Source of the DNA: Verrucomicrobiota bacterium
Lineage (GTDB): Bacteria > Verrucomicrobiota > Verrucomicrobiia > Opitutales > Oceanipulchritudinaceae
Length of the DNA: 64,000 nucleotides
Assembly: GCA_033762955.1 (NCBI GenBank)
Contig: JANRLC010000048.1
Span: 1-64,000 of the forward strand
Direction: 5' to 3'
Position 1 is the first letter of the stretch. Each line of letters opens with the position of its first letter. The translations under genes and the position numbers were made by a program. This document shows, piece after piece, positions 7,439 to 11,335 of this stretch. Under the pieces are notes generated by a model. It was given only the letters and a program-made list of their open reading frames with translations. It was not told where the DNA came from and ran no database searches.

Positions 7439-7660
7439 CGTGCAGACATCCTGCTGTCTGCACGCAAAGAAAGAGAATTTCAGCGAACCCCGGGAAGTAG
7501 AATGAACACTTGAGGACTGTGATCGAGGTGCTATGCACTCCATGCAGCGCCAACGGCGCGACCTTATACCAGCCTGGGCCATCGGCCCAGGTTCGTACCA
7601 ATATATACAGGATCGCGAGCGCTGAAGGCGCGGAACCAGCGGGATGTACACCATCCCCTG
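7439..7660. mobile_element. MITE-like palindromic repeat, copy A
   Basis: About 80% identical over about 215 bp to the reverse complement of 11122-11333. It starts with the hairpin CGTGCAGACATCCTGCTGTCTGCACG and contains GAGGTGCTATGCACTCCATGCAGCGCCAACGGCGCGACC...CAGCCTGGGCCATCGGCCCAGG...ATATATACAGGATCGCGAGCGCTGAAGGCG. Confidence 0.7.
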
Positions 7661-8004
7661 AGAACGCCAACGATTCGTTGTCTTTTTACCAACCACTGCC
7701 GACGGGGACGACAGCACTCCCGGCACTCACACATAAACGCTCCCCCCAGAAGCCTCCCCATGGGAACGCCGACGTCCTCGTCGGCAGTGGCTGAGCCTTC
7801 GGCGCGAAGAAGGCACTCGTTTTAGTCACTAGACTGGCCGTGCATCTCCAATGACTTCGAGTTGTACGCCCTGCATTTGACCCCAAATCCAGCATTGACA
7901 CCCCCCATGCCAATCCTAATTATCCACAGCTTACATCGATCCGAAGTCCACAACAAGGATCGCACCAACACAGGCTAGGCAAGTGTTGTTCTCCAATTTT
8001 ATAT

Positions 8005-8082
8005 GGTGGTAGTAGCTCAGTTGGTTAGAGCATCGGTTTGTGGAGCCGAGGGTCGCGGGTTCGAATCCCGTCTTCCACCCCA
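8005..8082 (+). tRNA. tRNA-His (anticodon GTG) with encoded G-1 and CCA
   Basis: Sequence GGTGGTAGTAGCTCAGTTGGTTAGAGCATCGGTTTGTGGAGCCGAGGGTCGCGGGTTCGAATCCCGTCTTCCACCCCA, with anticodon loop TTGTGGA and an extra 5' G pairing with C73. Confidence 0.8.
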
Positions 8083-8610
8083 TTAATTTCCTCTCGGGAA
8101 AACGTCCCCGCCTTGGGCAACAGTCCACCGGCGTAGATCCCGATGTACCGGAATCGCCTAAGTCGCTGACAGCAAAGGCTTACGCAGCCACCACTGCATA
8201 ACCGGGTTCTCTCAGTTTCGCACGTCCAAGACGCAGCGAACATCAGCAGGAACGCTTATCGTGAAAATCTCGCCCATGTCTCTCAGATTCATCTGCGAGA
8301 GCCAAAAGCTTAAGCAACTGTTTCGCTGCCATGGGTTATCCTCATTGAACTCAAATCAGAACTGAGATTTTGGCTCAGGTAATAATATATTCACACAACC
8401 TTGTAATTAAAAAGGAAGATTACCGCTTGGCGTGTTTCCGGGGATGTAACTATAATGTACTTCATCGGCAGTAAACCACCAAGAGTACGGCAGACAATTA
8501 CAGCACATGGTCAAGAAGCAAATGCAATCCAGACCGACAGCAATTGTATGTAATTATTAACAAAAACCTCAACTTATGTCGGCTGCATATTTGCAGCTTG
8601 AAATTAACTG

Positions 8611-10809
8611 TTGGGCACCTTTGGAAACACCATTATGCATGACCATATTCTAAAATCATGGCTTGGCGATATACCACCATTCAATGACGAAATCGGTCAC
8701 AAGACGGGGATTGTCAGCCCGGCCTGGAACGTTGATCATGCGGAAATGTATCCGACAATCCCGCTCGATCACGCCACCATCCGCATGGTTGGATCCGCCG
8801 AAGTGCTGCTTACGTATGCGATGCCCGGGCATCCGCCGCTGGCCATCGCCCCACCATGCTGGTCGCTCGACGACCGCGAGGTGGTCGGCGCTGTCGCTTG
8901 CTGGCGAACCGGCGAGCAGCGCGACCTGCCCAACGGCTGCCGCGAGAGCGCGTGGAGCGGCGACCTTGTTCAGGCCCCCGGCCACCGCCTCGAGCTGACC
9001 CTGCGCTGGGCGGCCGACGATCCGGTGGTGCGCTTCCGCTTACGGCTGCACGGCCCCGGCCAATTGACCAAGCCCGAGGGCCGCGACCGGCTGCGCTTCC
9101 TCGCCTGCGACCTCGCCGACGCCGGCGACGTGACGCTCGTCGAGCTGTCGGCGTTTAATGAGCTGACCCACAGCTACCAGCCGGTCGAGCGCGAGCTACA
9201 GACCGGCGTGCACGAGATGGGACCGATCGTGGTGGCGAGTCGTGGCGGGCAGTCGCTCCTGCTCGCTTACGAGCACGGCTCGCAGGCCAACGAGGCCTTC
9301 CTCGCCTACGTCCGCGACGGCGACCAGCTTCGCCTCGACGCGGTGCAGGGCACCTACTGCTGCGGCGATCCCCTGCCGTGGACCTCGCCGTGGCTCGAGG
9401 TCGCGACGGTGGCCGGTGACCGCGACCAGCTCGCCCGCGCCTACCGCCGCTTCGTCCTCGACCACCTCGCCCTGCGCCCGGCGACACGGCGGCCGCTGAT
9501 CTGCTACAACACCTGGAACCGCCAGGAACGAGCCAAGCACTGGGAAGGGAAGCCGTACCTCGCCGACATGAACGAGGCGCGCATGCTGCTGGAGGTCGGC
9601 ATCGCCGCGCGCATGGGCATCGACGTCTTCGTCCTCGACACCGGCTGGTACGAGAAGACCGGCGACTGGCGGACCTCGCGCGAACGCTTCCCGCGCGGAC
9701 TCGATCCGGTGAAGGCGGCGCTCGACGCCAACGGCATGCGCCTCGGCCTGTGGTTCGGGCCGCTGCACGCGGCGCTCAGCTCGCAGGCGCGGGCCGCGCA
9801 CGAGGACTGCCTTATCTGCAGCCACGGCAAGCCGTGGGACGCGCATCCGGTGTGGGAGACCGAGGCGAGCCAGAATCTGTGCCTCGCTTCGCGCTGGGCC
9901 GAGGCCTTCGCCGACGAGCTGATCCGACTGCACCGTGAGACCGGGGTCACGGTGTTCAAGTGGGACGCCATCGGTCAATGGGGCTGCGATGCGCCGGGGC
10001 ACCGCCACGGCGGGACCGAGGCAACGCGCGAGGAGCGCGCCGCGCGCTACGCCTATCTCCTGCCGCTGGCCATGGCCGAGGTGGTCGAGCGCCTCGCCGA
10101 GGCGGTGCCGGAGGCGATCGTCGACTTCGACGTCACCGAGGGCGGCCGCGCCGTCGGCCTCGCATTTCTCGCCTCGGGGCGCTACTTCCTGATCAACAAC
10201 GGGCCGTACTTCGCCAACTACGACCTGCCCAACGCGGTCGACGGCAACAGCAACATATTCCTCGGCCTCGGCCAGACCCGGGCGATGATCTGCCGTCAGA
10301 GCTACGCCTACGACCGCTGGCTGCCGGCCAACCTCACCCTGGTCCACTACCTGCCGGACGATCCGGCGCCGGCGGCGAGTTCGTGGACGAGGCCCAACGC
10401 CGCCGTCGATATCCTCGAGGTCACGCTGGCCTCGGTGGTGCTCGGTCACAACGGCTTCTGGGGCGACCTGACGGCGGTGTCGGAGGCCGGGGTGGCACGC
10501 ATCCGCGCCGTCCTCGAACGCTGGCGCACGGTGCGCGACGCGGTCACCCGGGCGCAGCCGCGGCGCATCGGCGCTCCGGGCATGGCGCCGGAGATCCACG
10601 AGAAGCTGCACGACGGGCGCGGCGTGGTCGCCATCTTCGCCGCCCAGGCCGGCGCCTGGGAGCACGTCACCACCGGGCCGGTGGCGCAAGCCGACTGGGC
10701 CATGCCGAGCGTCAACGGCGACACCATCATCACCCGCCTGCCCGACGGACGGGCGCGCATCCGCGCCGTGTTCCGCGCGCCCGGGGCGCGGCTGGCGGTG
10801 TTCGGCTGA
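8611..10809 (+). CDS. GH36-family alpha-galactosidase (melibiase-like), horizontally acquired
   Basis: The 732-aa ORF has the GH27/36 (DxGW) signature FVLDTGWYE. Coding GC is about 72% from about 8850 onwards against about 56% for its neighbours. Confidence 0.7.
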   Translation: MGTFGNTIMHDHILKSWLGDIPPFNDEIGHKTGIVSPAWNVDHAEMYPTIPLDHATIRMVGSAEVLLTYAMPGHPPLAIAPPCWSLDDREVVGAVACWRTGEQRDLPNGCRESAWSGDLVQAPGHRLELTLRWAADDPVVRFRLRLHGPGQLTKPEGRDRLRFLACDLADAGDVTLVELSAFNELTHSYQPVERELQTGVHEMGPIVVASRGGQSLLLAYEHGSQANEAFLAYVRDGDQLRLDAVQGTYCCGDPLPWTSPWLEVATVAGDRDQLARAYRRFVLDHLALRPATRRPLICYNTWNRQERAKHWEGKPYLADMNEARMLLEVGIAARMGIDVFVLDTGWYEKTGDWRTSRERFPRGLDPVKAALDANGMRLGLWFGPLHAALSSQARAAHEDCLICSHGKPWDAHPVWETEASQNLCLASRWAEAFADELIRLHRETGVTVFKWDAIGQWGCDAPGHRHGGTEATREERAARYAYLLPLAMAEVVERLAEAVPEAIVDFDVTEGGRAVGLAFLASGRYFLINNGPYFANYDLPNAVDGNSNIFLGLGQTRAMICRQSYAYDRWLPANLTLVHYLPDDPAPAASSWTRPNAAVDILEVTLASVVLGHNGFWGDLTAVSEAGVARIRAVLERWRTVRDAVTRAQPRRIGAPGMAPEIHEKLHDGRGVVAIFAAQAGAWEHVTTGPVAQADWAMPSVNGDTIITRLPDGRARIRAVFRAPGARLAVFG

Positions 10810-10975
10810 GCGGTACTGGGTGGGTTTGCGAAACCGCATCCCCGCCCTATGCTGCGGCCATGGCGATCGAGCGTCCCATCCTCCTGGTCGGTGGCGCCCC
10901 GAGCGTGCCGGTGTACGCCGTCCGCCACCTCACCGTCGCGGCGACTGGCACCACCGCCCATATTATTAGAGTCCT
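10810..10975 (+). pseudogene. truncated 5' fragment of a high-GC donor gene (MAIERPILLVGGAPSVPVYAVRHLTVAATG...)
   Basis: High GC continues for about 160 bp after the GH36 stop, with an ORF start and no completion; GC then drops sharply. Confidence 0.35.
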
Positions 10976-11039
10976 CATGCGCTACATAAATCCAGACATC
11001 CTGAAGTCGTGGGAATTGAGATGAATCCTGTTTGCCTTT

Positions 11040-11335
11040 AAGAGCACCAACGGCGCGCACTAGCCATAGCCTGGCCAACGGCCCAGGTTTAGACTAAACA
11101 ATGCCATGAGCGTTGAAGGCGCGTGTCCTACAACCCGCTGGGGACTCGCTTTCAGCGCTCCCGATCCTGTATATATATCGTTTTACCTGGGTTGTTGGCC
11201 CAGGCTGTCTTAAGGTCGCGCCGTTGGCGCTGCATGGAGAACATAGCACCTCTACCACAGTCCTCTAGGGTTCATCCTACTTCACGCAACCGCCGGGAAT
11301 CCCTTTGTTTTCGTCCTGACTTCAGGATGTCTGAA
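11040..11335. mobile_element. MITE-like palindromic repeat, copy B (inverted relative to copy A)
   Basis: See copy A. It also carries the internal palindrome CGCTTTCAGCGCTCCCGATCC / GCGCCTTCAACGCTCATGG shared with copy C, and ends ...GACTTCAGGATGTCTG. Confidence 0.7.

Follow-up and report, generated by a model that had tools for sequence, protein, structure and literature searches.

Do the two inverted repeats that bracket a tRNA-His gene and a GC-rich alpha-galactosidase gene mark the ends of a single mobile unit, or did the repeats and the gene arrive separately? This question is raised by positions 7439 to 11335 of a 64,000-nucleotide stretch of a Verrucomicrobiota bacterium (assembly GCA_033762955.1, contig JANRLC010000048.1, positions 1 to 64,000), called the window below. 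A preliminary description had proposed that the repeats, the tRNA-His gene and the alpha-galactosidase gene together form a composite, possibly trans-mobilisable unit, or else the scar of an integration event. [quoted passage not shown] The attractive MITE-bounded, gene-carrying unit would then be corrected to two ordinary events, foldback insertions on the one hand and, independently, the recent arrival of a gene for carbohydrate degradation on the other. The analysis also documents a MITE-like family in Verrucomicrobiota, where, to our knowledge, none has been described.

The foldback family and its complete copy

The family occupies five sites of the window, which span 6.4-32.3 kb:

10993..11333, no strand assigned: copy B, a complete 341-bp foldback (blastn, terminus search, arm alignment, DNA fold)
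10988..10992, no strand assigned: left 5-bp direct repeat AAATC, target-site duplication of copy B (read from the sequence)
11334..11338, no strand assigned: right 5-bp direct repeat AAATC (read from the sequence)
7443..7650, plus strand: copy A, long arm only (79.2% identity to the reverse complement of the right arm of B; nhmmer E = 1e-38)
22428..22628, plus strand: copy C (blastn, arm alignment, nhmmer; fold z-score -6.2)
6473..6527, plus strand: relic R1, an internally deleted 55-bp copy (terminus with 1 mismatch; blastn, nhmmer, repeat search)
32246..32311, minus strand: relic R2, a degenerate piece of one arm, flanked by the convergent GH42 and GNAT genes (nhmmer E = 5e-4; blastn)

Copy B carries most of the evidence. 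Its ends are perfect 16-bp terminal inverted repeats (CAGACATCCTGAAGTC, 10993-11008 and 11318-11333), which enclose a short arm (10993-11123), a loop (11124-11144) and a long arm (11145-11333), with an inverted hairpin pair at the centre (11109-11123 and 11145-11159). Folded as single-stranded DNA, the copy reaches -74 kcal/mol, with a z-score of -7.4 versus shuffled sequences; the fold z-scores obtained for the elements are -7.4, -6.2 (copy C) and -4.9. The target-site duplication that the preliminary description had suggested looking for was found here: AAATC stands on both flanks of copy B as a direct and not as an inverted repeat, as a target-site duplication predicts, and such a match would occur by chance in about 1 of 1000 cases. 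This duplication test rests on a single complete copy, the truncated copies being uninformative. Since it possesses its own perfect inverted repeats and its own AAATC duplication, copy B looks like an independent insertion. It had initially been taken for a 212-bp copy, which corresponds to the right arm only. The 341-bp element has no coding capacity, the open reading frames (ORFs) found across it being spurious or belonging to neighbouring genes.

At the remaining four sites, the copies are truncated or decayed. Copy A begins with its terminus (7443) and stops where the central loop starts; its similarity to copy B ends around 7650, its terminus contains 2 mismatches and its second arm is missing. 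The similarity between A and B that had drawn attention to the locus was readily reproduced, blastn aligning 7443-7648 over 207 nt with 11129-11333 in reverse complement (79.2% identity, E = 1e-43), and a repeat search of the window independently recovered the inverted pair (three inverted-repeat entries). Copy C combines the final ~33 nt of a long arm with the central hairpin (22450-22464 and 22497-22511) and a short arm in full, which ends in a perfect terminus (22613-22628). It had been presented as a third copy of the A/B repeat; a third copy does exist, but it covers another part of the element, since 22433-22628 matches the reverse complement of 10993-11176 (75.6% identity, E = 4e-34, blastn). 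Copy C is located just past the far end of an integron cassette array, whose integrase gene lies at 27996-28997. The palindromic arms GGATCGGGAGCGCTGAAGGCGCG and CGCGCCTTCAGCGCTCATGG noted at the outset are present, in copy C. The hairpin CGTGCAGACATCCTGCTGTCTGCACG, initially regarded as the terminal hairpin of the element, is present in copy A but confined to it: there, two substitutions in the terminus together with the flanking CGTG create a 10-bp stem, whereas the terminus of the family is CAGACATCCTGAAGTC. The relics at 6473-6527 and 32246-32311 come in addition to the copies first described. Relic R1 is composed of a left terminus (CAGACATCCCGAAGTCATGGG), 6 nt and a degenerate right terminus (TCATTTCCCACGACCTTAGCGCGTCTG).

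All arms share one architecture. From the centre outward, each contains a hairpin H2 (CGCGCCTTCAGCGCT type), a spacer of 21-26 nt, a hairpin H1 (CCTGGGCC...GGCCCAGG), a 12-nt linker and a second H2, beyond which 50-100 nt lead to the terminal inverted repeat. A full copy is therefore read as two unequal mirror-image arms of about 131 and 189 nt. Arm alignment distinguishes a short type (the left arm of B, and C) from a long type (the right arm of B, and A), the latter being longer by two blocks, of about 31 and 22 nt. Identity reaches 79% between A and the right arm of B and 76% between C and the left arm of B, versus 64% between the two arms of B. The H1 hairpins of A and C differ by one two-sided compensatory change (CCTGGGCC/GGCCCAGG versus CCTAGGCC/GGCCTAGG).

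The boundaries of the family are also consistent. Similarity always ends at the same CAG, and the terminus is seen in A, B, C and R1. The terminal 16-mer has 6 matches in the window at up to 3 mismatches, compared with 0.52 expected, and the core 15-mer AGCGCTGAAGGCGCG occurs 6 times, compared with 0.34 expected. A profile of the arms, searched with nhmmer against the 64 kb, retrieved the four arms (E = 1e-37 to 4e-40) and the relics, and nothing else in the window. All copies are intergenic or located in gene ends, three of the five sites lying between convergent genes.

These data indicate that the copies are one family of short, non-coding, MITE-like foldback elements: they combine terminal inverted repeats, a target-site duplication, a small non-coding size and multiple sites within the window. 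No transposase domain was detected in the ~45 larger ORFs of the window that were scanned, which supports the initial view of a MITE-like, internally palindromic family devoid of transposase. Bacterial MITEs and TIMEs (miniature elements with inverted repeats, derived from Tn3) are likewise short and non-coding, with perfect terminal inverted repeats, a 5-bp direct repeat and a strong foldback (PMC3934969, PMC13367494, PMC10969869), and the several diverged, truncated intergenic copies found here, one of them beside an integron array, are a further likeness. For instance, a 439-bp MITE of Acinetobacter flanks integrons and is associated with 5-bp duplications (PMC3934969). In contrast to such elements, no parent insertion sequence or transposase was found here, there is no sign of a pair moving the intervening DNA, and the arms are unequal and built of hairpin modules of the Acido-Lenti-1 type. 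Furthermore, Tn3-type elements have ends that begin with GGGG, and the termini found here (CAGAC...) are unlike them.

The mode of spread that we propose would involve a transposase encoded elsewhere in the genome, which would act in trans by recognising the 16-bp ends and would insert the element through 5-bp staggered cuts. Deletions, many of them at the palindromic centre, would subsequently degrade the copies and leave half-copies.

Another palindromic structure, unrelated in sequence to the foldback element, directly follows copy A: a 32-nt imperfect inverted repeat (7690-7793), 81% complementary, with a 40-nt loop, followed by a terminator-like hairpin (7795-7814).

The alpha-galactosidase block and its flanking repeats

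Between copies A and B lie the following features:

8006..8082, plus strand: tRNA-His, anticodon GTG (ARAGORN; Rfam tRNA 65.9 bits)
8083..8691, no strand assigned: spacer without long ORF, AT-rich from ~8340 (37-47% GC), with promoter-like sites, e.g. 8427-8456
8692..10960, plus strand: foreign GC-rich block, ~2.27 kb (nucleotide homology, junction alignments, GC profile)
8746..10809, plus strand: alpha-galactosidase-like gene (Pfam Melibiase, PF02065; start inferred from homologues)

The alpha-galactosidase gene had been described as foreign, and its composition (70-75% GC) bears this out, with a GC content at third codon positions (GC3) of 0.911, versus 0.48-0.73 in 17 other genes of the window. 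Its start, however, most likely lies at 8746 and not in the AT-rich DNA upstream. The closest homologues (74-90% amino-acid identity, mostly 681-693 aa) have starts that align with position 8746, which is residue 46 of the long ORF, whereas the database record MDX2110102.1 (724 aa) starts at 8635, 37 codons upstream, in AT-rich DNA of host type. The extension from 8635 to 8745 is due either to an over-extended annotation or to the insertion, which would have made a new N-terminal leader.

The limits of the foreign DNA can be placed on both sides of the gene. Three metagenome contigs of 70-72% GC share 88% nucleotide identity with the window (88.7% for the contig L002, over 8692-10805), and this similarity is limited to 8692-10806; upstream of 8692, the similarity to these donor-like contigs ends and the window becomes AT-rich. 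On the other side, GC-rich DNA runs 150 nt past the stop codon and includes a second ORF, whose ATG is at 10860 and which is cut off at ~10960, GC falling from 0.77 to 0.40 across 10900-10960. Therefore, the foreign piece measures ~2.27 kb and comprises one whole gene and about 33 codons of the next, arranged as 54 nt of upstream DNA, the complete alpha-galactosidase-like gene, a 50-nt spacer and the first ~33 codons of the second ORF. By contrast, the tRNA-His gene and the AT-rich spacer have a host-like composition and are absent from the donor-like contigs, to which 8083-8691 shows no homology.

Taken together, composition and homology suggest that the alpha-galactosidase gene is a recent import from a high-GC donor and that this import was an event separate from the element insertions. 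In this reading, a fragment of 2.27 kb from the chromosome of a high-GC donor landed in existing mobile-element debris downstream of tRNA-His, probably through illegitimate recombination or as what is left of a larger island. The gene may now use promoter-like sites of the AT-rich spacer. Another origin was considered, namely an integron cassette, and was rejected, no attC-like palindrome being seen by eye downstream of the gene and the integrase being located 17 kb away.

Two explanations would give this arrangement a different meaning. The one put forward initially is that A and B delimit a composite unit (7443-11333), mobilisable in trans and similar to MITE-bounded structures or TIME-COMPs (MITE composites derived from Tn3), which would have imported the tRNA-His gene and the alpha-galactosidase gene together. 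Some of its premises are sound: the termini at its outer edges (7443 and 11333) are indeed inverted, the tRNA-His(GTG) gene at 8006-8082 indeed lies between them, the enclosed gene is foreign, and pairs of MITEs are able to mobilise intervening genes, as exemplified by TIME-COMPs (PMC13367494) and the 439-bp MITE of Acinetobacter (PMC3934969). However, the outer flanks of the proposed unit differ (CCGTG at 7438-7442 versus AAATC at 11334-11338), and copy B, which is self-contained, has matched AAATC flanks by itself. The terminus of A is imperfect and one of its arms is lacking, and A is 21% diverged from the right arm of B, yet the gene has kept its unameliorated composition (GC3 0.91). Moreover, the ends of the foreign block do not coincide with those of the elements: the block starts 1 kb inside the supposed unit and stops 32 nt before B, and the tRNA-His gene and spacer are host-like. 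When all pairings of outward termini (6473, 7443, 10993, 11333 and 22628) were compared for a shared 5-bp flank, only the two ends of B agreed, the outer flanks being AGGCG (6468-6472) for R1, CCGTG for A, AAATC on both sides of B and ATGTT (22629-22633) for C. Since no pairing of ends has a common duplication and no att-like repeat of tRNA-His was found, the composite-transposon reading is unsupported, and we regard it as highly improbable; we read A and B as bracketing the gene by position only, because the mark by which such events are recognised, a single duplication around the whole unit, is absent. The other explanation concerns the contig itself: the GC-rich block could be an assembly chimera. 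The source is metagenome-assembled, the donor composition is undiluted, and no independent contig has the same junctions, the exact protein being found on one contig only. A chimera would nevertheless require two false joins, and neither junction has a shared repeat or an identity of k-mer length. In addition, the closest sequences in the databases share only 88% identity with the block, which is thus not a common co-assembled population of the collections, and its ends cut recognisable genes, as real illegitimate insertions do. An assembly artefact therefore appears improbable, if slightly less so than the composite unit.

Two related candidates were tried and rejected. In the first, A and C would be the two parts of a single element, separated by an insertion of 14.8 kb; they are co-oriented, they overlap by ~68 nt at only 72% identity and their outer flanks are unmatched, and this reading is unsupported. 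The tRNA-His gene could be the attachment site of an island; blastn-short found no repeat of the tRNA region longer than 13 nt in the window. As no repeat of the 3' end of tRNA-His is present in the window, a classical tRNA-targeted island is likewise not shown.

Probable kinship with Acido-Lenti-1 and the nature of the family

The hairpin modules of copies A, B and C resemble a family already present in Rfam, Acido-Lenti-1 (RF01687):

7546..7591, minus strand: Acido-Lenti-1-like module of copy A (RF01687 22.4 bits, model 1-46 of 46; own model 24.4 bits, E = 1.8e-4)
11186..11231, plus strand: Acido-Lenti-1-like module of the long arm of B (RF01687 20.8 bits, 1-46 of 46; own model 22.6 bits, E = 4.9e-4)
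11043..11087, minus strand: degenerate Acido-Lenti-1-like module of the short arm of B (own model 13.0 bits, E = 0.12, full model)
22534..22579, plus strand: Acido-Lenti-1-like module of copy C (RF01687 23.0 bits, 1-46 of 46; own model 23.3 bits, E = 3.3e-4)

The link was first seen in a permissive Rfam scan, in the right arm of B, and each copy was then scanned separately. In A, the right arm of B and C, the alignments to RF01687 include both hairpins, the conserved GGCU and CG...CU letters and standard pairs. For a comparison that does not depend on the Rfam filters, we derived a covariance model of our own from 47 distinct sequences published for the motif (Weinberg et al. 2010, PMC2864571, Additional file 5); it was scored at each position of the window, all filters being switched off and E-values being given for 128 kb. 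The three top hits of the window are the arms of A, C and the right arm of B, the short arm of B ranks fifth, and all of the top seven hits fall within element copies. With default filters, 204 kb of unrelated loci yielded no match to this model at E <= 1.

The resemblance extends to the organisation of the modules. As in RF01687, an 8-bp H1 is followed by GGCU, a linker of 11-12 nt, a 5-bp H2 and then CU, with near-identical consensus letters (compare the marine metagenome member CCUAGGGCUUACGCCCUAGGCUAAUAAGUAGCGCGCCUACAGCGCU with copy C, CCUAGGCCGUCGGCCUAGGCUGGGGCUGGAUCGCGCCUUCAGCGCU). Both also have an H2 upstream of H1, a central inverted H2 pair and outward-facing module pairs. The extra H2 is located 21-26 nt upstream of H1 in the four arms found here and 21-25 nt upstream in Lentisphaera araneosa and in the flanks of the marine metagenome members. 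All modules of the window face outward, toward the terminus, and those of B are 98 nt apart, compared with 93-94 nt in L. araneosa ABCK01000016, in both cases around a central inverted H2 pair. There are also differences: scores here are 20.8-24.4 bits, versus a gathering score of 37; the H1 loop has 3 nt here and 4 there; the modules here are part of a discrete element with terminal repeats and a duplication, whereas those of Lentisphaera form open-ended alternating or tandem arrays. The terminus of the element is absent from the published flanks of Acido-Lenti-1 (PMC2864571 supplement).

From the models and the shared layout, we conclude that the H1-linker-H2 module is a relative of the Acido-Lenti-1 motif. 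The hairpins would therefore be conserved building blocks of a repeat family found across bacteria of the PVC (Planctomycetes-Verrucomicrobia-Chlamydiae) group and Acidobacteria. The motif has been reported in Acidobacteria and Lentisphaerae, sometimes near group II introns (PMC2864571). A bolder proposal, which we put forward only tentatively and consider less probable than its contrary, is that Acido-Lenti-1 is the conserved hairpin core of a mobile foldback DNA family of PVC bacteria and Acidobacteria and not primarily a small RNA. If so, no copy before the element of Verrucomicrobiota would have been caught with both a target-site duplication and intact terminal inverted repeats. Its hairpins might then be sites read by the transposase, or be needed for a hairpin DNA intermediate, and the covariation of the motif would reflect constraints exerted by DNA and transposase instead of an RNA function. 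Labels of small RNA genes in the annotation of Lentisphaerota, Acidobacteriota and Verrucomicrobiota would consequently need a caveat. Acido-Lenti-1 has been an orphan family of Rfam since 2010, and the element provides a testable lead.

The same observations can be read in two other ways. Truncated copies of MITEs can resemble repetitive extragenic palindromic (REP) sequences (PMC10969869), and the main rival of a MITE-like family is that the elements are palindromes akin to REP doublets forming hairpins (REPINs) or to bacterial interspersed mosaic elements (BIMEs). They would then have spread as single-stranded hairpins, through a REP-associated tyrosine transposase (RAYT) or an IS200/IS605-type HUH transposase and not by DDE cut-and-paste, and the apparent terminal repeats would merely be the ends of a palindrome. 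The entire element is indeed a foldback of small conserved hairpins, arranged in inverted pairs that form a larger hairpin, its many decayed copies are intergenic and often located between convergent genes, H1 shows a compensatory change between A and C, and the modules of L. araneosa form arrays of alternating orientation with periods of 74-240 nt, as in BIMEs. However, HUH-type insertion leaves no target duplication and copy B has one; the outer flanks of the four termini (CACGG, GATTT, AAATC and ATGTT, read outward) have no common target motif; no Y1/HUH transposase was found among the ORFs scanned in the window. REPINs have no target duplication and rely on a RAYT gene; no such gene was seen here. 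REPINs are also several times shorter than the 341-bp element. We therefore judge this rival unlikely, though it deserves more weight than any other. The second possibility is that the modules are genes of structured small RNAs, as the Rfam entry implies, and that the repeats are gene duplicates and not mobile DNA. The matches to RF01687 are full-length, and covariation was reported for the motif, which was rated as probably RNA (PMC2864571, Table 1). On the other hand, the scores are under the gathering score, the modules face outward on both strands of one element, inside a palindrome of 341 bp that has terminal repeats and is flanked by a duplication, the copies are truncated at arbitrary points, and a promoter scan revealed no promoter or terminator signals tied to the modules. 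Duplicated RNA genes are thus a very doubtful explanation of the repeats. A small-RNA role of the modules, though conceivable, is difficult to reconcile with outward-facing copies on both strands of a bounded palindrome.

The preferred reading, a MITE-like family moved in trans, has its own weak points. There is only one complete copy, and the target duplication is a single case. The RF01687 scores (20.8-23.0 bits) do not reach the gathering score of 37, and the modules of Lentisphaera, which form alternating arrays without obvious termini, are nearer to REP/BIME-like biology than to classical MITEs. The source contig is metagenome-assembled. Neither the ORFs scanned in the window nor terminus scans of genome, metagenome, viral and plasmid collections revealed an autonomous partner sharing these termini, which is an absence within the material covered and not proof. 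Finally, scans of the genome, metagenome and viral collections with the 20-nt terminus yielded chance-like single matches only, and mobility is therefore not shown by polymorphism.

These scans matched 7 genome contigs, 11 metagenome contigs and 1 viral contig, each time with a single match and without the rest of the element, except for a partial match in two contigs of a bog metagenome (L026, 3980-4011, and L027, 1271-1302). In both, an intergenic 32-nt segment is 87% identical to the terminus and the first subterminal bases, with no palindrome or Acido-Lenti-1-like module behind it; this match is probably due to chance, or possibly to a very distant relative. The plasmid collection contained no match to copy B or to the AT-rich spacer. 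The collections also hold no close relative of the source lineage itself: the best homologue of its PhzF-family protein (gene 4000-4797), which represents the nearest relative available, is only 66% identical. A Logan contig from the run DRR729085 is 100% identical to 174-4930 of the window (~4.7 kb) and ends at tRNA-Leu.

Surroundings of tRNA-His and other features of the window

The genes that border the locus, together with the integrase gene mentioned above, are:

6530-7183: 217-aa protein (MDX2110101.1)
11338..11586, minus strand: truncated recombinase-associated helix-turn-helix (HTH) gene (PHROG 14161 'recombinase'; the reading frame enters copy B)
11678-14026, plus strand: SPFH/Band-7 protein, 782 aa, MDX2110105.1 (homologue search)
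27996-28997, plus strand: integron integrase, MDX2110119.1 (TIGR02249 416 bits, cut-off 265)

The HTH gene belongs to a family of which 614 relatives were retrieved, typically of 120-150 aa and also found fused to large serine recombinases. About 40 C-terminal residues are missing from the remnant, and removal of B or of the GC-rich block does not recover them. It is what remains of another mobile element, and with the truncated second donor ORF it marks the ends of the foreign block, which it abuts. An insertion of the GC-rich block into the HTH gene was also considered and rejected: removing B, or the block over its range of boundaries, never restored the C-terminal motif of the family.

The relatives of the SPFH protein share 73-90% amino-acid and about 80% nucleotide identity with it and come from assemblies labelled Patescibacteria, Gammaproteobacteria, Thermoanaerobaculia and Anaeromyxobacteraceae, in unrelated gene neighbourhoods; homologues at 87-90% identity are not syntenic with the window. 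The conservation of this gene appears unusually high for one that apparently moves between phyla. Downstream of tRNA-His, the DNA is thus throughout a mosaic of imported and disrupted pieces, in agreement with the scars of mobile DNA proposed at the outset.

Foreign or mobile-derived DNA just downstream of a tRNA gene, here the GC-rich block, the HTH remnant and the widely transferred SPFH gene, is also typical of islands targeted to tRNA genes. In contrast to such islands, the 3' end of the tRNA does not recur as a direct repeat in the window, and no integrase lies beside tRNA-His, the sole tyrosine recombinase of the window being the integron integrase, 20 kb away. A sigma-70-like promoter match (7895-7923, promoter scan) precedes the tRNA-His gene. 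At gathering threshold, Rfam detects three tRNAs in the window and nothing more. Between tRNA-His and the foreign block, a 29-codon ORF on the minus strand (8246-8333, MAAKQLLKLLALADESERHGRDFHDKRSC) is preceded by a GAGGA ribosome-binding site and may be the stump of another broken gene.

Several other repeats and genes were observed further along the window. The integron array (~22650-27990) contains small minus-strand ORFs, with weak matches to an HNH endonuclease (below the Pfam cut-off) and to T5orf172/MUG113 domains. Directly downstream of the integron integrase, an ORF of 308 aa without family match (29098-30024, minus strand) includes a 21/63-nt tandem repeat with 14.5 copies of GAGTGGCGGCAACGGTGGTGC (29536-29915). 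A heptamer microsatellite, (AATCTGR)n, occurs at 173-216, 29071-29104 and 51440-51490, in intergenic positions and with some flank similarity of about 84%. Two blocks of about five 9-nt tandem units containing GATC (GATCCGACC type) lie at 19984-20050 and 20418-20484, inverted and 376 nt apart; the second is inside a minus-strand gene (20053-20838) whose product has, besides a topoisomerase-type zinc ribbon, a four-helix-bundle domain of the 23S-rRNA-IVP type.

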